Source of the DNA: Ketobacter sp.
GTDB taxonomy: Bacteria > Pseudomonadota > Gammaproteobacteria > Pseudomonadales > Ketobacteraceae
Assembly: GCA_041626995.1 (NCBI GenBank)
Contig: JBFKSL010000001.1
Span: 1-37,083, forward strand
Direction of reading: 5' to 3'
DNA length: 37,083 bases
Made by a program: the position numbers and the translations under genes. The notes below the pieces were generated by a model. It searched no databases. It saw only the letters and a list, made by a program, of their open reading frames with translations, and was not told where the DNA came from. Shown here piece by piece: positions 4,754 to 17,021 of this stretch (the first letter of the stretch is position 1; the number at the start of each line of letters is the position of its first letter).

Positions 4754-5214
4754 AAATCCCATCCTTGCCAGTTTGGATCTGTCAAAACAAAACCCTTGCC
4801 GCCCATATCTCTAAAAATATTATCCAAGTAAACCCTATTCTGCTTAGAAGTCATTAGCCTGGTTACAGGAAAGTCTATAGGTTCCTGCATTAACAAAAGT
4901 TTATCTTCATAACTCAGTGGTTTGATAATCTTGTCATACTGCAATCTACACGCCTCAGATTCTTCCCGCAGTATAGGCACGCCGTAGTGTAGTTTAAGCG
5001 TTGCACGTACCATTTCAGGTGTTATTTCGGGGTTTAGTTGCTGCATTTGCTCAGTTAGTTCTAAGACCCACTTTCTTTGGAGCCTGTTTTGATTGACTGA
5101 GCGTTTAACGCCATCCACTAACGACACAGTAAACTTCCCCTCTCGCCCCTTGATATGGTTGATTAGTTTAGCCTTGTCCGTGTCGTTGTGAACTGCGAAA
5201 TTAACGGTTTTCAT
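4750..5214 (-). CDS. NinB/Orf-like recombination protein
   Basis: KRSVNQNRLQRKW motif (cf. NinB RSxxQN), C-terminal TRLMTSKQ...YLD..G..LTDP; upstream of ninG. Confidence 0.6.
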   Translation of the reverse strand: MKTVNFAVHNDTDKAKLINHIKGREGKFTVSLVDGVKRSVNQNRLQRKWVLELTEQMQQLNPEITPEMVRATLKLHYGVPILREESEACRLQYDKIIKPLSYEDKLLLMQEPIDFPVTRLMTSKQNRVYLDNIFRDMGGKGFVLTDPNWQGWDL

Positions 5215-6196: not shown

Positions 6197-6439
6197 TTAT
6201 GAAACAGAACTTCTGTTCTGTTCAAAGTGTTTAATAAATTCCTCAAACTTACAGTCAACTGACTCGGCAAGCATGATGCCCTTGAGTATTGTGCAACCAA
6301 TTATGCCCCGTTCAATTTCTGACACATGACCTCGGCCCACACCGCTTAACGTGGAAACTTGTTCCAATGTCTTGTTAGCTGCTTTTCTCTTGGTTTTTAA
6401 CCATGAGCCGAACAACTCTCTGAATAGTTGCTTATCCAT
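6197..6439 (-). CDS. XRE-family helix-turn-helix regulator
   Basis: FGSWLKTKRKAANKTLEQVSTLSGVGRGHVSEIERG is a canonical HTH_3 pattern; no C-terminal peptidase domain. Confidence 0.9.
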   Translation of the reverse strand: MDKQLFRELFGSWLKTKRKAANKTLEQVSTLSGVGRGHVSEIERGIIGCTILKGIMLAESVDCKFEEFIKHFEQNRSSVS

Positions 6440-6446
6440 TTTAAAT

Positions 6447-6692
6447 CTACCTCAATCCGCCCCACGGGTTTGATTTCTTAGGTTCCGATGCTGTTGCTTT
6501 GAAAATCGAATAGCCAGTTTCCCAACTTTCGCCCGTTCTCACTCTGAAAAACTCAAACAAAGTAGATTGAACGCCATCCTCAAACTGAATGCCGCCGTGC
6601 CTTCCTTTTTCCATAAATTCGTCAGGTGAGAAATTCTGGTGTGTTACCTTCTCCCCGCGTTGAATGGCTTTGATTGCTTCACCTTTTAACAC
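6447..6692 (-). CDS. Hypothetical phage protein, first gene of the leftward operon
   Basis: SD AGAGGA 9 nt before GTG 6692; N-terminus KGEAIKAIQRGEKVTH. Confidence 0.7.
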   Translation of the reverse strand: MLKGEAIKAIQRGEKVTHQNFSPDEFMEKGRHGGIQFEDGVQSTLFEFFRVRTGESWETGYSIFKATASEPKKSNPWGGLR

Positions 6693-6726
6693 TGTTAAAA
6701 ATCCTCTATCTAAGTACACTTTCCAA

Positions 6727-6763
6727 CTTTATAGAGAGAATGCCGCTTACTATCTCTATAAAG
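6727..6763. promoter_or_regulatory. Perfect 11-bp hairpin in the leftward leader
   Basis: CTTTATAGAGA-N15-TCTCTATAAAG. Confidence 0.6.
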
Positions 6764-6824
6764 CCCCTATTTGTTCGTAACGCTAAACCCTAAACTTTTG
6801 TGTAGTCGCGTTTCGATGGAGTTA

Positions 6825-6890
6825 ATACTACACGTTATTTTTTATTGTGCAACCTTTTTTGTTGCAAAGTCTGAAATTTTTATTTAATAT
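6825..6890. promoter_or_regulatory. Divergent promoter pair with palindromic operator-like core
   Basis: TGCAAC-CTTTTTT-GTTGCA (6848-6866) holds back-to-back TTGCA -35 boxes; rightward TTGCAA-17-TAATAT (6862-6890), leftward TTGCAC-16-TAGTAT. Confidence 0.6.
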
Positions 6891-6922
6891 GTACTCGTTC
6901 CTTACAAATAAAGGTGTTAATT

Positions 6923-7126
6923 ATGGACTTAGGATTATCGCTAAAGATTGCTTTAGCAAGAAAGAAAATGACTCAAACAGAACTGGCTAATGATTTAGGT
7001 GTTAGTAGACAAATTGTAACCAGGTGGGTGATCACCGGAAACATGCCTAAAAGCAAAATGGCTGAACTGGCAGAGTATTTTGGAATGAAACCGAGCGAGT
7101 TTGTCGCACTGGGAGAGTGGGAATGA
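6923..7126 (+). CDS. Cro-like XRE HTH regulator
   Basis: LKIALARKKMTQTELANDLGVSRQIVTRW; first gene of the rightward replication operon; AAGGTG SD. Confidence 0.9.
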   Translation: MDLGLSLKIALARKKMTQTELANDLGVSRQIVTRWVITGNMPKSKMAELAEYFGMKPSEFVALGEWE

Positions 7127-7572
7127 AATTATTCAAGATAGAAGATCACAATGAATTCAGAGCAAAGGATGGTAAAAAAATAATATACCTCCTCAAGTAT
7201 AAAGGAGAAAACCTATATGTTGGACAGACGGTTGAACTAAAATGCAGGGCAAGGTGGCACAGAAGCTCCTACACAAAAAAGGAGTTTGACGAAATTTATT
7301 ACTATTTTTGTGACGAGTCGGAAGCCAACAATGAAGAGGCAGCATCAATTGTCAAATACAACCCCAAAATAAATGGCAACCTCCCTCCAAATGATGCATA
7401 CATTTCAGCAAAGAAGTTTATGGATCAACTTTTGTGTGAACTAAAAACAAATCACGAAAGTTATAACTTTAGTTACATAGCAAGCCGATGGAACAGCGAT
7501 GCGCTGCCATACATCGATGCGAACAAACTAGAAGATTTAAAACAAGCTTTTAAGCAAATATTAAATAAATAA
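7123..7572 (+). CDS. GIY-YIG family endonuclease
   Basis: IIYLLKYKGENLYVGQT...R..WH, later E...I..YNP.IN; ATGA overlap with the cro-like stop. Confidence 0.8.
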   Translation: MKLFKIEDHNEFRAKDGKKIIYLLKYKGENLYVGQTVELKCRARWHRSSYTKKEFDEIYYYFCDESEANNEEAASIVKYNPKINGNLPPNDAYISAKKFMDQLLCELKTNHESYNFSYIASRWNSDALPYIDANKLEDLKQAFKQILNK

Positions 7573-7620
7573 AAAAGCCCCGCAGCAAACGAGGCAATTT
7601 AAACACACAAGGTAATTATA

Positions 7621-8289
7621 ATGAATAGCTACTTAAAAGTAAAAAACTGGGACGAGTTTCAGCATTACAGCAACCGAACCCCACCATGGATTAAATTACA
7701 CAATAGTTTACTCGATGATTACGAGTTTGAATTACTATCTGATGTAGCGAAAGGGCACCTGCTTTGTATATGGATGCTAGCTAGCAGGACAGGTAACAAA
7801 ATACCCAATAACCCACAATGGATAAAGAAAAAGATAGGGGCTAGCTCAAACGTGGACCTACAAACCTTCTTGGATGCCGGATTTCTTATGCTGCACACCG
7901 GCGAGCAAGATGCTAGCAAGGTGCTACACAATGAGGAGCAGGATGCTACGAACTACGTTCCACCAGAAGAGAAGAGAAGAGAAGAGGAGAAAGATAAAAG
8001 GCCTTTTTTTGATGTGTTTTGGAAAAACTGGATTCATGCAAAAAAACAGATTGGTTTAGGTGGAAATTATGGGGCTAGATCTGACGCATTAAAAAAGTGG
8101 AACACACTCTTTGGAAAGTTGTCTTTTGATGAAATGGAAAAACTAACGGATGACATTGTTGACTTCACCATGCTTGTCTATGGTGACATACTTGAGGCTG
8201 ACTCTGAAAACAGGCAACCAAAGTTTTTTAATTTTAGAAACATGTATCCACAGAAATTTTTAGCTACAAAGGGGTGGGAGAATGAATAG
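7621..8289 (+). CDS. Phage replication initiator (lambda O-like position)
   Basis: KNWDEFQHY...PPWIKLH..LLDD.EF N-terminus of phage initiators; central iterons and EKRREEEK linker; followed by dnaB. Confidence 0.8.
   Translation: MNSYLKVKNWDEFQHYSNRTPPWIKLHNSLLDDYEFELLSDVAKGHLLCIWMLASRTGNKIPNNPQWIKKKIGASSNVDLQTFLDAGFLMLHTGEQDASKVLHNEEQDATNYVPPEEKRREEEKDKRPFFDVFWKNWIHAKKQIGLGGNYGARSDALKKWNTLFGKLSFDEMEKLTDDIVDFTMLVYGDILEADSENRQPKFFNFRNMYPQKFLATKGWENE
7904..7999. other. Putative replication origin (iterons plus purine-rich tract) inside the initiator gene
   Basis: AGCAAGATGCT (7904), AGCAAGGTGCT (7915), AGCAGGATGCT (7937): palindromic AGCA-n3-TGCT in 11-bp register, followed by AGAAGAGAAGAGAAGAGAAGAGGAAAAGATAAAA. 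Confidence 0.65.
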
Positions 8290-9658
8290 GTTTGAATTTA
8301 ATTTAATCGGCTGTCTTGCTAGTGATGTTTTTTGGATGCGTGATCCTGAGTCACTCACTGACGCAATGGATATTGCCAGAAGGGAATACTTCTCAACTGA
8401 CTTGGGCAAGGTTATATATTCATCCGTCCTGCAAATACTACAAAGCGATGCAGCACCGGACAAGGATCTAATAGACCAACTGCTAACAAACAACGACACA
8501 TACAGGAATTATGACGGGCAATCGGTATTGGCTGACGCGGTGAGAAACTCAAAGACTGAGCTTAACGCGGTCGTGTATGCAAGAAAAATTAGAGAGGAGC
8601 ATTTCCTGAGGGATGCAAAGACAAGGTTTGCAGAGGGGTTAAAAATACTAAATGAGCACGGAGATGCTAAGAATAAGATTGAACAGGCACTAAACATCGC
8701 AGGAGACGTGTCCACAGACTACGATATGGCGCGAAAAGATGCGTCCCTATGTGATGCTATTGCCAAGATGATTGATCGCCTTGAGGACGTTTCTAGCAGG
8801 GGAAGTACAATAACAGGTGTAGATACTGGTTACGCGAGACTTAATCAAATCACGCATGGGTTGCAACCTGGCAATACGATTGTTGTTGCCGGTGTGCCAG
8901 GTGGGGGCAAGACAACATTCTGCATGAATATTATGGCACACGCCGCACTAGAGGCTGACAAAAAGGTTTTATTCTACTCACTTGAGATGCCCAAACATGA
9001 GATTGCCATGAAGTTATGTTCATGGAGGACTGGCATTCAGATGGCTGCATTTCACACCGCCGAGGTGGCTACAGATGATGTGAAAAAAGAAATGTTGAGA
9101 CACCACATTGGCGAGATGAAAAAAGACAACCTATTCATAGATGATGATCCAGAAATAACGGCAGAAACCATAGAAAACAGAACAAAACAACACGCAATGA
9201 AGATGGGCGGGATAGACCTGATATGTGTTGACTACCTCACACTCATGGATGCTCAAGGTGACAACGAGACAACCAAGGCAGGTAATGCGGCCAAATCATT
9301 AAAAAGGCTAGCCAAGAAATTCAACTGCCCAGTAATAATAATTAGCCAAATGGTTAAGAATCTAACAGGAAGGCCAACAAAGGCAGATCTTAGACAAACG
9401 GGCCAACTAGGCCAAGATGCTAGTTTAATAATGTTTTTATACAAAGAAGAAAATCAAGTTACAGAGAGTGGACAATCTCAAATAGTTGAATTGATAATTG
9501 ATAAGAACAGAATGGGGGAGACTGGCTCAATAAACCTAGAGCCGCAATTTGCAATAAACAGGATGATAGAAACCGACAGGGAGGCGGCATTTCCACTTGA
9601 TAGGGATGGAAACCCAATAAAACACAACAAAGGATCAAAACTGGGGCGTGTAGCATGA
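8282..9658 (+). CDS. dnaB: Replicative DNA helicase, DnaB family
   Basis: ITGVDTGY..LN..T.G, Walker A GVPGGGKTT, FYSLEM, VDYLTLM, LKRLAK..NCPVIIISQ, DLRQTGQLGQDA, KNRMGETG. Confidence 0.95.
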   Translation: MNRFEFNLIGCLASDVFWMRDPESLTDAMDIARREYFSTDLGKVIYSSVLQILQSDAAPDKDLIDQLLTNNDTYRNYDGQSVLADAVRNSKTELNAVVYARKIREEHFLRDAKTRFAEGLKILNEHGDAKNKIEQALNIAGDVSTDYDMARKDASLCDAIAKMIDRLEDVSSRGSTITGVDTGYARLNQITHGLQPGNTIVVAGVPGGGKTTFCMNIMAHAALEADKKVLFYSLEMPKHEIAMKLCSWRTGIQMAAFHTAEVATDDVKKEMLRHHIGEMKKDNLFIDDDPEITAETIENRTKQHAMKMGGIDLICVDYLTLMDAQGDNETTKAGNAAKSLKRLAKKFNCPVIIISQMVKNLTGRPTKADLRQTGQLGQDASLIMFLYKEENQVTESGQSQIVELIIDKNRMGETGSINLEPQFAINRMIETDREAAFPLDRDGNPIKHNKGSKLGRVA

Positions 9659-11046: not shown

Positions 11047-11082
11047 CTAAGCCGCTGGCGTTTATCTCCTTTGCGTCGGCGG

Positions 11083-11793
11083 CTACCTTCCGTTGAACTC
11101 AAACACGGCATTAGCAAAACCCCTAGGGGTGGCACTGCGAATGTTTTTAGTTTTGAGCGACTTACCACCAAGCTTTTTATGTTGGTCACTATAGCCAGCC
11201 TCAACATTTACAGGCCACTTATCAGGCATAACAAACCCATTACCAGACCATATACAAGTCTTTTTGGGGTATGCGTCTCGGGGCTTTATGTAATCAGGGT
11301 AGAGCGGGTGAGTATCATCCTTTGGTAAGTAACCCCCATACTCATGCGGATGAAACATATAGTCGGGCTTTCTCCATAGGCTACTAATGACGCTAACCGG
11401 ATTTTCCAAGGCCCATGAGCAACCGAGTGCATTACCCAAGTCGCGAACCAAGTACACCAACTCCATAGCCTTTAGTTGAAAGTCTGGATCCGCTCGCCTC
11501 TTTCTTTCGAAATGCGCCGCCCCACTAACAGCCAATTGCGTACACTCTGGGAAGCCAAATACAAAGCTTACGTCCTCGCCAGTCACGTCAATAATGCGCC
11601 TAACACCCTTAAAATCGCCCCGTTCCTTTATCGAGTCATCAAACCACATGCCAACATTCAAAATATTTTCGTGGCCCCCTTTTGTGACACCTAAAGGATG
11701 TTGACCATCAAAGCAATAACAAAGGTAACCAGCATCGGCCCAGGGCTTAGCCATAATCCCAGTATAATCAAATAAAAATACAGCCTTCTTCAT
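11083..11793 (-). CDS. Phage DNA cytosine methyltransferase-like protein (short, atypical C5-MTase family)
   Basis: Motif I-like FLFDYTG, catalytic-like FGFPECTQLAVSG, motif VI ENPVS, Y.KKTCIW, C-terminal RSATPRGFA.AVF. Confidence 0.75.
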   Translation of the reverse strand: MKKAVFLFDYTGIMAKPWADAGYLCYCFDGQHPLGVTKGGHENILNVGMWFDDSIKERGDFKGVRRIIDVTGEDVSFVFGFPECTQLAVSGAAHFERKRRADPDFQLKAMELVYLVRDLGNALGCSWALENPVSVISSLWRKPDYMFHPHEYGGYLPKDDTHPLYPDYIKPRDAYPKKTCIWSGNGFVMPDKWPVNVEAGYSDQHKKLGGKSLKTKNIRSATPRGFANAVFEFNGR

Positions 11794-11946
11794 GCGAAAC
11801 TATCCCAATACTTACTTAACTCTTTTTCCATTCTAATATCCTCAGCCTTTCTCCTGGCTTCACGTCTACGCTTTTCCGCAGCAGTTACACGACATTTTTT
11901 TGGCCTTAGCTTCTATTTGCATCATTCTCAATTTGCGCTCTAACAT
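11790..11946 (-). pseudogene. Small basic protein interrupted by one extra base in an A7 run (or recoded)
   Basis: 157 nt between the coupled ATG (11946) and the TGA overlapping the methylase start = 52 codons + 1 nt; removing one A from T7 at 11895-11901 yields MLERKLRMMQIEAKAKKCRVTAAEKRRREARRKAEDIRMEKELSKYWDSFA. Confidence 0.6.
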
Positions 11947-13320: not shown

Positions 13321-13811
13321 GTTCAATATTTCAACTAACAACAGAGCAGTTAAGCTTAAAACGACTGGTTGAGTCAGGCGAGTTAACCGAGGAGATGGTA
13401 GCTGATACACTAGAGGGAATGGATCACGAGCTAGACCAAAAAATAGAGTCTTACTGCCATGTCATTAATGCAATGAATGCAGACCTGCTAACAATCGATA
13501 ACGAGATAACAAGGCTAAAGACCCTACAATATGAAAAGAAAAACCAAGTAACCAGGGTCAAGCGCCAACTAACGGATGGGCTGCAAAGAATAGGAAAAAC
13601 CAAGTTCGACACCGGGCTATTCAAAGGTCACATAAGAAAAGGTGTTGAATCCGTTAAAATCACAGATGATTCATGGCTACCTAGCGACTTTATTAGCGAA
13701 AAAATCACAGTGTCAGTTGATAAGAATGGCCTCAAAAAATGGATAAAAGAGGGCAACGAATGCCAAGGTGTTGAGCTTGTAGCTGGCGATAGCTCGCTGA
13801 TAATCAAATGA
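13317..13811 (+). CDS. Siphovirus Gp157-family protein
   Basis: DTLEG..ELDQKIE, EI.RLK coiled coil, T.LF...IRK...SV.I.D...LP..F, VDK..LK..IK.G...G.EL; adjacent to the annealase. Confidence 0.88.
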   Translation: MSSIFQLTTEQLSLKRLVESGELTEEMVADTLEGMDHELDQKIESYCHVINAMNADLLTIDNEITRLKTLQYEKKNQVTRVKRQLTDGLQRIGKTKFDTGLFKGHIRKGVESVKITDDSWLPSDFISEKITVSVDKNGLKKWIKEGNECQGVELVAGDSSLIIK

Positions 13812-13857
13812 GCTGGTTTGACGAAATAGCGGTGGCACTACACCGCACTTTAAGCAG

Positions 13858-13913
13858 AGATAACCTTTTAAATTAGCGGATGCTTGCAGTCCGACTAGAT
13901 TTTGTTGTTATGT
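13858..13913 (-). mobile_element. attC-like recombination site 1 (56 bp)
   Basis: Minus strand ACATAAC-AACAA-AATCTAGT-CGGACTGCAAGCATCCG-CTAATT-TAAAAG-GTTATCT: AAC/GTT cores, 5/6-nt spacers, arms pairing with two extrahelical bases. Confidence 0.7.
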
Positions 13914-13933
13914 TGCGCAGCAGGGGGATTGAC

Positions 13934-14749
13934 TTGAAGCACTTAGACTTATTTGCAGGGATTGGCGGCTTTTCACTAGCTGCTAAATGGGCAGGAATTG
14001 ACACAGTGGCATTTTGTGAAATAGACGAAAGTTGCCATAAGGTTTTAAATAAACACTGGCCTATGCTGCCGATACATAAAGATATTAAAAAACTGGATGG
14101 AAATGATTATGCAGGAATTGACCTTATTACCGGGGGATATCCGTGCCAACCTTTTAGCGTTGCCGGAAGCCAAAAAGCGGAAGAAGATGACCGCCACCTC
14201 TGGCCGGAAATGTTCAGAATTATTACACAAGCAAAACCCACTTGGGTCATTTGTGAAAATGTTTACGGCCACGTCAAATTGGGACTGGACAGTGTGCTAC
14301 ATGACTTGGAAGGTATCGGCTACGCCTGCCAGTCGTTTATTATTCCGGCTCTCGCCACAGGTGCAAACCATAACAGGGAGCGAGTTTTTATTGTGGCCTA
14401 CTCCCCAAGCAATGGACAGCATGAAGGCAAGGCCAGAGTCAGCAATGGAAAGGCAAATGAATACAGCGAGGAAGGGAAGGACGAAGATTGCAACAATGAA
14501 GGATTCAGCCGTTTACGGTTTGGTGTGGACTGGAAAGGCAAAACGATTGGGCGATGGGGAGTTAAACCCCCAGCGCTTAGAGTGGATGATGAACTACCCA
14601 ATAGGATGGACCGAAACAGAATGATAGGCAACGCTATTGACCCAATGATAGCTTACGAATTAATAAAAAGTATTAAAGCGACACAACTTTTAAATAACGG
14701 GCGGCCCACCGCCCAAACCAAACAACAAAAGGGGGTTAAAAATGAGTGA
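13934..14749 (+). CDS. DNA (cytosine-5)-methyltransferase, alpha polypeptide (motifs I-VIII and X)
   Basis: DLFAGIGGF, GGYPCQPFS, ENVYG, HNRERVFIV, GNAIDP; likely TTG start at 13934 after GGGGGA SD; motif IX absent. Confidence 0.93.
   Translation: MKHLDLFAGIGGFSLAAKWAGIDTVAFCEIDESCHKVLNKHWPMLPIHKDIKKLDGNDYAGIDLITGGYPCQPFSVAGSQKAEEDDRHLWPEMFRIITQAKPTWVICENVYGHVKLGLDSVLHDLEGIGYACQSFIIPALATGANHNRERVFIVAYSPSNGQHEGKARVSNGKANEYSEEGKDEDCNNEGFSRLRFGVDWKGKTIGRWGVKPPALRVDDELPNRMDRNRMIGNAIDPMIAYELIKSIKATQLLNNGRPTAQTKQQKGVKNE
14109..14624 (+). CDS. Nested +1-frame beta polypeptide of the C5-methyltransferase (carries motif IX)
   Basis: Open frame of over 170 codons wholly inside the MTase gene, ending LNPQRLEWMMNYPIGWTE; start could be 14097, 14103 or 14109. 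Confidence 0.82.
   Translation: MQELTLLPGDIRANLLALPEAKKRKKMTATSGRKCSELLHKQNPLGSFVKMFTATSNWDWTVCYMTWKVSATPASRLLFRLSPQVQTITGSEFLLWPTPQAMDSMKARPESAMERQMNTARKGRTKIATMKDSAVYGLVWTGKAKRLGDGELNPQRLEWMMNYPIGWTETE
14681..14700 (-). mobile_element. Degenerate half attC-like site closing the MTase cassette
   Basis: Plus strand ACACAAC-TTTTAAATAACGG resembles AGATAAC-CTTTTAAATTAGCGG of site 1; ACACAAC is near-complementary to GTTATGT at 13907. Confidence 0.5.
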
Positions 14750-15050
14750 ATACTTTCAATCTATGGAAACTGGCGAGATAATCAAAGCCAAAGGCAAGTT
14801 GTGCGCACACTGGGAAAGCCTAGCAATGCAGGTTAAGTGCGAAACTAACGCACGAACTGGGCGCCCAGGGAAGGAATACAGCGAGAAAACACTATCAATA
14901 ATACATGACTTGACACTATCAACAGCAGAGGCAGCAAGATTGTCGGGCGTTGCAAGGTCAACAGTTAAATACAGAAGAAAGAAGGTAAAAGATGAAAAAA
15001 AGCGAATTGAGCAAGAGGCAAAAAGAGCTAATTTACAAAAGCGAACTTAA
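14742..15050 (+). CDS. Hypothetical protein with C-terminal HTH
   Basis: LSTAEAARLSGVARSTVKYRRKK; GGGGG SD. Confidence 0.7.
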   Translation: MSEYFQSMETGEIIKAKGKLCAHWESLAMQVKCETNARTGRPGKEYSEKTLSIIHDLTLSTAEAARLSGVARSTVKYRRKKVKDEKKRIEQEAKRANLQKRT

Positions 15051-15120
15051 CTCTATGAGGGTGTCAACTCTGACTGGCATACCGCAATACATAATTAGAC
15101 AGTTGAGGGCGAATAAATAA
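14992..15120 (+). CDS. Tiny HTH-like protein (42 aa, MKKSELSKRQKELIYKSELNSMRVSTLTGIPQYIIRQLRANK)
   Basis: Not in the track. AAGG SD; pattern parallels the HTH of the preceding gene. Confidence 0.5.
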   Translation: MKKSELSKRQKELIYKSELNSMRVSTLTGIPQYIIRQLRANK

Positions 15121-15121
15121 C

Positions 15122-15149
15122 TTGCAAAATTAAAATAGTGTGTAATAAT
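15122..15149 (+). promoter_or_regulatory. Putative sigma70 promoter for the structured-RNA cluster
   Basis: TTGCAA...TGTAATAAT, same design as the promoters at 6862 and 12281. Confidence 0.55.
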
Positions 15150-15156
15150 TTATTTT

Positions 15157-15293
15157 GCAGTGTAGGAGCTGTGATTAGGTTATAGCAAGAGGGTTATGAG
15201 TACAGGTTCAGTAATTTCAAAGTGGGTAACTCCTACATTGCGATTGCTATAACCGCCCCACTTGCTGGGCTTGTACTGATAGCCCTTTTTTTT
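15157..15293 (+). ncRNA. C4/CI-like antisense or attenuator RNA
   Basis: Long G-U-containing stem (15188-15226 with 15256-15287) plus T tract; its loop carries CTCCTACATTGC and TTGCTATAACC, complementary to GCAGTGTAGGAG (15157) and GGTTATAGCAA (15178). Confidence 0.7.
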
Positions 15294-15388
15294 GTATCCG
15301 GTGTGAAATTTAGTAGCTTTAATTTAGCTAAGAGAGTGAGCACAAATAGTAAGAAAGCCTAAGTAGGCAATCTAGATACGGATACAAA
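15291..15388 (+). ncRNA. Putative multibranch structured RNA 2
   Basis: Closing helix TTTGTATCCG/CGGATACAAA; inner hairpins TAGCT-n7-AGCTA and GCCT-AAGT-AGGC. Confidence 0.5.
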
Positions 15389-15492
15389 CCCTTTCACAAC
15401 CCCACATATTAAGCATTCGCTACTTACTGCAAAACAGCAAAAATTTAACTGGCTACACACAATGACGTTATAGACGCGGATAAACAGATTTT

Positions 15493-15601
15493 GTGCAGGG
15501 TGATGGTTTTGACCTATCCAACAAGGATGTGAATTAGGTTCCTGATTACTGTTGTGTGACTAATAGCTAAAGATGTAAAGCGGGTTAATCCATCCCTGCA
15601 C
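15493..15601 (+). ncRNA. Putative multibranch structured RNA 3
   Basis: Closing GTGCAGGG/CCCTGCAC, ATGG/CCAT and TTGACCT/GGGTTAA; inner ATCC/GGAT, ATTAG/CTGAT and CTGTTG/TAATAG hairpins. Confidence 0.55.
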
Positions 15602-15638
15602 TTACGTCTAGATGACCATATTAAATAAGGGGTATAAG

Positions 15639-15815
15639 ATGTACGTAGAAGACAAAAACAAAGCAAACCTTTGCATGGTAGTAAGCAGAGATGAGGACAC
15701 ATTTAAATTTGAAATGTACGACGATCTTACAGATGAGACCAGACCACTCACAATTGAGATAGGCAAGGCTGAGTTTATAGAACTTATCGCCGCAATGGTA
15801 AGCAAACTAAATTAA
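15639..15815 (+). CDS. Hypothetical protein
   Basis: AAGGGG SD before ATG 15639 (the track starts it at 15612). Confidence 0.65.
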   Translation: MYVEDKNKANLCMVVSRDEDTFKFEMYDDLTDETRPLTIEIGKAEFIELIAAMVSKLN

Positions 15816-15845
15816 CCAACAAACAAAACGTAAAGGAAATATAAA

Positions 15846-16130
15846 ATGAAAATACTAGAAGTCACAAGCAAGTATAGAATCTCGGTTATACCTCATAACT
15901 ACCAACTTCAAGAATTTATTGAAGGGGGTAAGATGGTTCGGAATGTAGCAACTGGCGAAATGGTAGAGCAAAAGTCAGAGTGGAAGAATCGCGATGTATA
16001 CTACGCGAATTTAAACGCAATGGTTAAACACATAGCTCGACTCGAATCAGACGAGAACGCAACAAATCTAAACGAATGGCTCGCTCATTTTGAGTCAATC
16101 ATAAACAAAGCAAAGGAGATACAACTATGA
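15846..16130 (+). CDS. Hypothetical phage protein, DUF5405-like
   Basis: KYRIS...NYQLQE...W....YY.NL..MV pattern; AAGGA SD. Confidence 0.6.
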   Translation: MKILEVTSKYRISVIPHNYQLQEFIEGGKMVRNVATGEMVEQKSEWKNRDVYYANLNAMVKHIARLESDENATNLNEWLAHFESIINKAKEIQL

Positions 16131-16453
16131 AGAAATTAATATCAGCACTAGCAGTATGTTTACTGGCGGCTTGCGGAATGACGCCGGAACAAGAGGCGGA
16201 ATATTACTCAAATCTAGATTCGGTGTGCGGATATGACGTTAAAGCCAAGGGCAAGATTGTCTTCGTCGGACAGACTGATAAATGCTTGCGGACATTGTTT
16301 GGTGACAGTCCGTCTCAGTGGAAATCAAACACAACAGTGGTTGAGGGAATGGTCAGAGAGCAGCGCATATATAACAGTATTTTGGTGTCGGCTTACAAAC
16401 TGCCAAAGTACATTTATCTAACCAACGGCAAGGTTACAGCGTACCAGTATTAA
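16127..16453 (+). CDS. Lipoprotein
   Basis: MKKLISALAVCLLAAC lipobox; AAGGAG SD. Confidence 0.8.
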   Translation: MKKLISALAVCLLAACGMTPEQEAEYYSNLDSVCGYDVKAKGKIVFVGQTDKCLRTLFGDSPSQWKSNTTVVEGMVREQRIYNSILVSAYKLPKYIYLTNGKVTAYQY

Positions 16454-16465
16454 GGAGATACAAGC

Positions 16466-16924
16466 ATGATAACAAAATTAGTAAGAATAGGCCGCGACGC
16501 AGAATTAAGAGTGCTACCCAACGGTACACAGGTTTTAAACTTTCCAGCGGTTTACGATGTAGGGTACGGAGATAATAAAAAGGGGCAGTGGATTGAGTGC
16601 GCCATGTTTGGCAAACGCGCTGAGTCGCTTGTTCAGCACTTTACCAAGGGTAAGCAAATTGTAATCTATGCTGATGATGTTCAGGTTGAAACGTACAACA
16701 AGAACGACGGCACACAAGGCGTAAAGCTAAAGTGTAAATTAATCGAGTTTGATTTTGCTGGCGGTCAACAACAAGCGCAACAACAAGCTGGTGGATTCCA
16801 ACAACAACAAGCACCACAGCAATTCCAACAGCAGCAGCCACAGGGAACGGCGGGTTATGGTACGAGTGGGCCAACGCCACCACAACAGCCGCCAATGGAA
16901 TTCGATGACGACATTTCTTGGTAA
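16466..16924 (+). CDS. ssb: Single-stranded DNA-binding protein
   Basis: RIGRDAELR, W..C.MFGKRAE.L...KG..I OB fold; Q/G/P-rich linker; acidic tail FDDDISW. Confidence 0.95.
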   Translation: MITKLVRIGRDAELRVLPNGTQVLNFPAVYDVGYGDNKKGQWIECAMFGKRAESLVQHFTKGKQIVIYADDVQVETYNKNDGTQGVKLKCKLIEFDFAGGQQQAQQQAGGFQQQQAPQQFQQQQPQGTAGYGTSGPTPPQQPPMEFDDDISW

Positions 16925-16972
16925 CATTGAGCAAACGGGCAACTTGTTGTCCTGTTCTGCGATGTGTTATAG
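16919..16972 (-). mobile_element. attC-like recombination site 2 (54 bp)
   Basis: Minus strand CTATAAC-ACATC-GCAGAACA-GGACAACAAGTTGCCC-GTTTGC-TCAAT-GTTACCA; two extrahelical bases on the same arm as in site 1; the ssb stop TAA lies within the core. Confidence 0.65.
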
Positions 16973-16982
16973 ATACCCACCA

Positions 16983-17006
16983 AGGCCGCATAACAGCGGC
17001 TTTTTT
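16983..17006 (+). terminator. Rho-independent terminator
   Basis: AGGCCGC-ATAACA-GCGGCTT followed by a T tract. Confidence 0.85.
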
Positions 17007-17021
17007 ATTGCATACAATTTA

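Follow-up and report, generated by a model that had tools for sequence, protein, structure and literature searches.

Two predicted integron attC sites and an inverted methyltransferase cassette in an integrase-less marine phage genome

We analysed a stretch of 37,083 nucleotides from a Ketobacter sp. assembly (GCA_041626995.1, contig JBFKSL010000001.1; "the window"). It is a phage contig of 37 kb that carries a 141-base terminal repeat and is binned as contig C1 within a 4.69-Mb genome (G000). Two hairpins in it, site 1 (13858–13913) and site 2 (16919–16972), are, as far as sequence can tell, real attC sites of the integron type, with the recombinogenic bottom strand lying on the coding strand of the phage. 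The reading we favour, with a probability of about 70%, is that two phage genes received inverted cassettes at their 3′ ends through an integron integrase (IntI) acting in trans, and that both hairpins remain as fixed relics of these. They look like relics of past insertions because the partner attC after the methyltransferase gene of the first cassette lacks its right arm and site 2 has no gene.

Geometry of the sites and extent of the cassette

A first-pass annotation, made from the letters of the window alone, had described two palindromes with attC geometry, and a geometry scanner and a covariance model both return them, at the same coordinates, as their top two matches. Read on the minus strand the sites show the geometry of an attC top strand, and therefore the plus (coding) strand is the predicted recombinogenic bottom strand. 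Each has the R''-L''-L'-R' hairpin with spacers of 5–6 nt and AAC/GTT cores, and at each the extrahelical bases lie on the arm opposite the AAC triplet (usually the first is G and the last T, 6 bp apart). In site 2 (+ strand; predicted crossover between 16924 and 16925) the unpaired C16957 and T16950 are six base pairs apart. In site 1 (+ strand; predicted crossover between the AA and C of the core, at 13863/13864) the unpaired G13898 and A13894 are three pairs apart, and the 6-bp spacing is reached only if T13890 is counted as a third extrahelical base, as the covariance model aligns it.

In the whole window the scanner reported no site other than these two (scores 10.4 and 11.4); after three-base block shuffling, 0 of 15 sequences had a match of at least 10, and three matches in total reached at least 9. 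The covariance model was home-made, built from the bottom strands of 13 class 1 integron attC and used in place of the published IntegronFinder and HattCI models. It ranked site 1 (19.1 bits) and site 2 (17.3 bits; rough E values 0.004 and 0.013) first and second of 14 matches in the window, with exact coordinates; the next best match scored 10.9 bits, and the chromosomal attC of the co-binned bacterium score 13.8–28.2 bits under the same model. Both sites were matched on the + strand only, which bears out the earlier statement that they are opposed to the adjacent genes. Strand calling was checked on the class 1 integron plasmids that supplied the training sites, where the matching strand was opposite the cassette genes; a sixth stretch had no scanner match. 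One further alignment was set aside since it contains top-strand matches.

Several features weigh against the identification of the hairpins as attC. The cores of both sites deviate from RYYYAAC/GTTRRRY (many class 1 and chromosomal control attC deviate too), and the first unpaired base of site 2 is C. Folding of the bottom strands is weak (z of -1.65 for site 1 and -2.06 for site 2), and the top strand of site 1 folds slightly better than the bottom one (-4.7 versus -4.3 kcal/mol); one IntI1-active site of phage PH101 folds no more strongly (z -1.5). Apart from these features, a search of Rfam gave no match near the gathering score, and degenerate patterns made for sites 1 and 2 gave 0 and 0 matches in viral contigs. 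We consider it extremely improbable that the two elements are ordinary RNA hairpins, acting as terminators or in translation control, that resemble attC by chance. Such hairpins would fit the intergenic position of both elements, the terminator-like score of the inner stem of site 1 and the modest folding z-scores, but not the fact that they are the top two model matches with exact ends, nor the breakpoint at the crossover and the strict strand bias and end matching in relatives (see below). Moreover, a separate terminator-like hairpin (16982–17011, +) follows site 2 and is kept by a strain that has no site 2.

Site 1 opens a predicted inverted gene cassette of 823 bp (13864–14686, +), attC first and then the gene, which is absent from a related strain. 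The gene encodes a C5 cytosine methyltransferase with a TTG start (13934–14749, +), assigned by PF00145, phrog_363 and alignment with homologs. Homologous methyltransferases mostly have about 250 residues and end near 14686, and the frame in the window continues some 20 codons beyond. In the homolog loci the stop codon is often the TAA of the next attC; the corresponding position in the window reads CAA and lies at a cassette-end core, or R' box (14681–14687, +; predicted crossover between 14686 and 14687). The R'' flank of site 1 matches this core at 5 of 7 positions, compared with 3 of 7 for its left neighbour and 3 of 7 for an alternative core at 14692. The stop position in homologs and the R'' match thus put the cassette at 13864–14686. 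At site 1 the unit is bounded by two crossover cores with matching ends; the gene is on the bottom strand, downstream of its attC, which is not the polarity of a classical cassette.

The first-pass annotation had also reported a half site at 14681–14700. The feature is real, but instead of a single half site it is rather the cassette-end core followed by the left arm of a further attC (14687–14711, +), the right arm of which is missing. Since the bases after the cassette nearly reproduce the left arm seen in a homolog locus (L100:6588), where a 55-bp attC is intact, this second attC appears to have lost its right arm. We also considered the half site as an attI; there was no convincing match to the co-binned attI region, and an attC left arm fits better. 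In one homolog (P0005) the N-terminal residues match 7 of 8 codons of the right arm of site 1 read in another frame, a start which suggests that the attC travels with the methyltransferase gene.

A nested ORF (open reading frame) of 175 amino acids lies in another frame (14097–14624, +); 17 of 17 close homolog loci keep this frame open and conserve a C-terminal motif in it. It likely encodes the beta (second) chain of a methyltransferase made of two chains, both carried on one cassette, an architecture described for M.EcoHK31I (PMC2836561). The enzyme likely helps the phage to resist host restriction enzymes. Upstream, the 3′ end of a 22-codon ORF (13808–13876, +) coincides with the insertion point, its first 56 bases being shared with the cassette-free strain.

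The second site adjoins the single-stranded-DNA-binding protein gene ssb (16466–16924, +). As the first-pass annotation had stated, the ssb stop codon (16922–16924) is the TAA of site 2; the protein ends in DISW, compared with DIPF in its three closest homologs. No recognisable cassette gene follows, and in the next 2.5 kb no candidate cassette end scored above 8/10. Site 2 would accordingly be an orphan that has lost its cassette gene. SSB homologs ending in LLSCM were considered as read-through into an attC and dropped, the tail resembling a normal extension.

Cassette-free strains and methyltransferase relatives

The window is present in four marine metagenome runs, all from one study and one of them perhaps its source, and alleles were compared in the contigs of these runs, which drop rare variants. 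In X2 and in X3 a single contig carries a joint from 13863 to 14732, the two ends being separated by six different letters. The left breakpoint of this cassette-free allele is the predicted crossover of site 1, identity ending at 13863; the right one lies 45 bases past the cassette end. Breakpoints of gene content at the crossover points, which the first-pass annotation had expected among relatives, are thus seen at 13863 in this strain, as well as at the TAAC of two homolog loci, L100 and L101. Absence of the unit with a breakpoint at 13863 is suggestive of insertion. Because the small upstream ORF ends a few bases later anyway, we put the chance of a coincidental left breakpoint at an estimated 5–10%. 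In a contig of X3, site 2 is replaced by an ordinary DIPF end of ssb, and X2 shows a similar skip.

This comparison also yields points against insertion by IntI. The cassette-free allele has G where a clean excision or target would have C, the 45 bases of the half site are missing from it as well, and it comes from a strain about 90% identical, within one study. Given the G and the missing half site, the allele is not a clean excision product or an exact IntI product. These features suit another history, which we find unlikely, in which the attC sites are real but arrived in pieces of a cassette array from another phage, through Sak-type homologous or microhomology recombination, and no integrase ever acted here. 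It would draw on the gene for a Rad52-like annealase 0.5 kb upstream, on the half attC in the insert, which resembles one in the array of another contig, and on the last ssb codons, which differ from those of relatives upstream of the site 2 crossover. However, identity with the cassette-free strain reaches the last base before the site 1 crossover, with no foreign DNA to the left.

The first-pass annotation had suggested looking for an excision junction across the 3 kb between sites 1 and 2. The mobile unit is instead placed at 13864–14686, and no joint between about 13863 and 16924 was found in the contigs of the four runs. We regard it as very unlikely that the sites are active now and that a host IntI shuffles or excises the DNA between them, including these 3 kb. 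Both sites are complete and co-oriented, and the co-binned genome has IntI and attC sites of which 18 out of 20 scored have, like site 2, C as the first unpaired base. Excision from site 1 to site 2 would nonetheless remove ssb, and the natural partner attC is half deleted.

If the cassettes were instead inserted in the past by IntI in trans, as we favour, the integrase would have cut the folded bottom strand between the AA and C and joined the cassette either to an attC already there or to a secondary site of attG type; later deletions would have removed the neighbouring attC and the gene of site 2. The methyltransferase would then protect phage DNA against restriction, and with the inverted layout a gene that comes in could be expressed from the early operon of the phage. 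With a fork moving rightwards from the replication genes (7.6–9.7 kb), the bottom strand would be on the template of the lagging strand; a point against this is that neither iterons nor a clear replication origin were found in the phage.

Polarity in the relatives is the same. We scanned 160 loci with homologs of the methyltransferase, namely 80 of 574 viral and 80 of 586 metagenomic matches; some are duplicates or close kin, so that counts are not independent, and most have no attC. The covariance model found 41 attC in these loci, 41 of 41 on the sense strand of the methyltransferase, and the scanner placed 33 of 35 on the sense strand over 176 loci, a few likely false matches included. According to the longest ORF, homolog loci gave 16 inverted, 4 ambiguous and 0 classical calls, compared with 1, 2 and 25 for controls. 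A bottom-strand ORF stopped at R' at 27 of 44 sites in homolog loci versus 5 of 37 in controls. On the other side of the balance, a scored attC lies directly beside the gene in only 9 of the 17 closest near-full-length homolog loci.

Three loci (L018, L100 and L101) share a methyltransferase at 99% identity, and in each a different attC-like site comes after it: identity between L100 and L101 stops at TAAC, that between L018 and L100 two bases later, and L097 and L098 diverge there too. In 24 of 26 phage pairs (none worse) and in 28 of 29 classical pairs, R'' agrees better with the end of its own cassette than with that of the neighbour, and this end matching places the crossover at the left AA/C junction in the same pairs. 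The relatives therefore appear, on sequence grounds, to share the chemistry of integrons with the gene polarity reversed. One phage attC (L022:5645) is at least 90% identical to the attC on 3542 of 3667 matching plasmids. As a separate observation, the sites of that viral contig (L022:5645–5704 and 5018–5107) are nearly identical to attC of class 1 resistance cassettes and stand at the head of phage genes in the inverted layout.

Candidate integrases and phage context

That the phage itself has no integrase, as noted in the first-pass annotation, held in a six-frame search of C1, which gave no tyrosine recombinase (PF00589) and no TIGR02249 match, with 7 tyrosine recombinase matches elsewhere in G000; a serine resolvase domain was not found in the six frames either. 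C1 does not carry the intI and attI on one molecule that make a complete integron. Its two sites, 3005 bases apart with the half site between them, form an integrase-less attC cluster (CALIN; at least 2 attC within about 3 kb, no intI), at the edge of what the 3 kb rule of PMC9892861 allows.

The enzyme probably came either from the chromosome of the host (an IntI to which we give about 55%) or from a co-resident temperate phage with an IntI of its own (about 45%). Two IntI in G000 score above the TIGR02249 cut-off, one of them adjoining a classical array, and IntI is found in 26 of 27 other genomes of the family; a host IntI acting in trans is plausible. The second IntI of G000 (L204, contig C409, 1948–2985) sits on a contig of 4.4 kb without an adjoining cassette array. 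Elsewhere in G000 (L199, contig C480, 611–3051) a bacterial cassette array flips attC orientation midway, with two sites on one strand and three on the other.

The host assignment has several results against it. The phage sites measure 54–56 bp, compared with 60–120 bp, mostly 114–117, for the attC of G000. Beyond binning, neither a BLAST match nor a CRISPR array was found to link phage and G000, and no homolog of the phage capsid was found in the 27 family genomes. At E≤1e-60, 300 genomes of the order gave no match to the methyltransferase; among bacterial genomes its top identity was 58% (best 80 of 113 matches).

Viral contigs with IntI, inverted arrays and phage genes make a phage-encoded IntI a real alternative to the host enzyme. 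An IntI alignment scan of viral contigs covered 80 of 111 loci (L291–L370). All 13 IntI picked from viral loci pass the TIGR02249 cut-off, and all four IntI loci checked have phage genes (for example terminase, portal, tail, replication, a second integrase). Many viral contigs (for example L330, L344, L347 and L361) encode IntI downstream of inverted arrays; among four checked, it is accompanied by a separate phage integrase in three and by a transposase in the other.

In the IntI-carrying viral loci 125 of 135 model matches lie on the intI strand. Strand calls from the longest ORF are mixed (21 inverted, 10 classical, 31 ambiguous), as are stop positions (39 versus 28 of 98), and we therefore turned to family matches. 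Among 10 IntI loci chosen because of their arrays, phage families were matched by 10 of 39 bottom-strand ORFs and by 0 of 30 top-strand ORFs. The matches include methyltransferases, PAPS reductase-like and Mom-like proteins.

Scans of 61 and 36 ORFs show that the window encodes terminase, portal, capsid, DnaB, Sak/Rad52, Gp157, SSB and two methyltransferases. INPHARED gave no close phage relative for 12.5–18 kb of the window, the best capsid match being 49%; a search of IMG/VR with Gp157 gave none either, and the SSBs matched were only 25–32% identical. The region at 6197–9658 resembles temperate phages in its divergent genes for a helix-turn-helix protein, a replication initiator and DnaB, which have NinB and NinG on their left, but there is no integrase. 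The second methyltransferase (11083–11793, −; phrog_757) is also absent from a related strain (joint 11089–11809), with no attC match beside it; a GC-rich hairpin at about 11050–11085 ends at its breakpoint. A non-coding stretch at 15152–15618 has three different replacements among co-occurring strains.

Implications and relation to known systems

Integrons are viewed as bacterial devices, and recently as stores of anti-phage genes. We would give even odds to a wider proposal, that tailed phages run an integron-type gene exchange of their own. Their pool of back-to-front cassettes, with many DNA-modification genes, would be supplied by IntI-encoding temperate phages and drawn on by integrase-less phages such as this one via any IntI in the cell, largely apart from the forward pool of the host. 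If so, the inverted phage pool would be the counterpart of the bacterial stores, in which methyltransferases and other counter-defence genes are traded site-specifically, and part of phage mosaicism would have a defined mechanism. It also bears on how cassettes are constructed, as polarity differs between the two pools and attC chemistry is apparently the same.

Phage attC sites have been published already; the inverted design is the new aspect so far as our literature search reached. This search (titles and abstract openings, with few subscription journals covered) found no paper on inverted phage cassettes or on phage-borne IntI with inverted arrays. Qi et al. 2023 (PMC9892861), in the parts available to us, describe CALINs and DNA methyltransferase cassettes in virulent phages and report that IntI1 recombined 5 of 6 phage sites with attI1. 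The text that we saw has no remark on genes lying on the bottom strand, which figures or the annotation file may show otherwise. We mapped sites from that study: PH101 attC1 and attC2, both recombined there by IntI1, lie on the same strand as the annotated genes, P12002L attC1, the site that failed, is on the coding strand, and TJE1 is classical. PH101 (L196:30919–32987) has four attC, of which two are near-identical; at each of the four the bottom strand lies on the coding strand. Compared with those CALINs, the window has one whole cassette and two relics; PH101 is inverted alike, TJE1 classical.

Recombination is higher with the bottom strand on the lagging-strand template, according to the part of PMC5371416 that we consulted. 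From what we saw of a preprint (bioRxiv 10.1101/2022.09.11.507474), SALINs are isolated cassettes put by IntI at short GWT sites (attG) outside integrons, the folded attC being later lost by slippage. Those are ordinary cassettes in bacterial chromosomes, whereas the empty allele at site 1 has no GWT at the crossover.

Phage-borne IntI with inverted arrays in IMG/VR (for example L330, L347, L361) resemble the window in that the bottom strand is the coding strand and in their DNA methyltransferase cargo, but they encode IntI downstream of the array and the window phage has none. With class 1 and chromosomal integron cassettes (PMC5027507) the phage sites share the R and L boxes, the 5–6 nt spacers, unpaired bases opposite the AAC triplet, matching cassette ends and the predicted bottom-strand crossover between AA and C; one class 1 cassette attC (L206:4125) shows the same pattern of G and A 3 bp apart as site 1. 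At 54–56 bp the phage sites are just under the range of 57–141 bp given for attC by Nivina et al. 2016 (PMC5027507). Unlike in integron cassettes, the phage gene is on the bottom strand, after its attC, often ending on the TAA of the next site, and, unlike in integrons, there is no intI or attI on the phage molecule. The element in the window would work like an integron cassette except for its gene polarity, and is not a complete integron.

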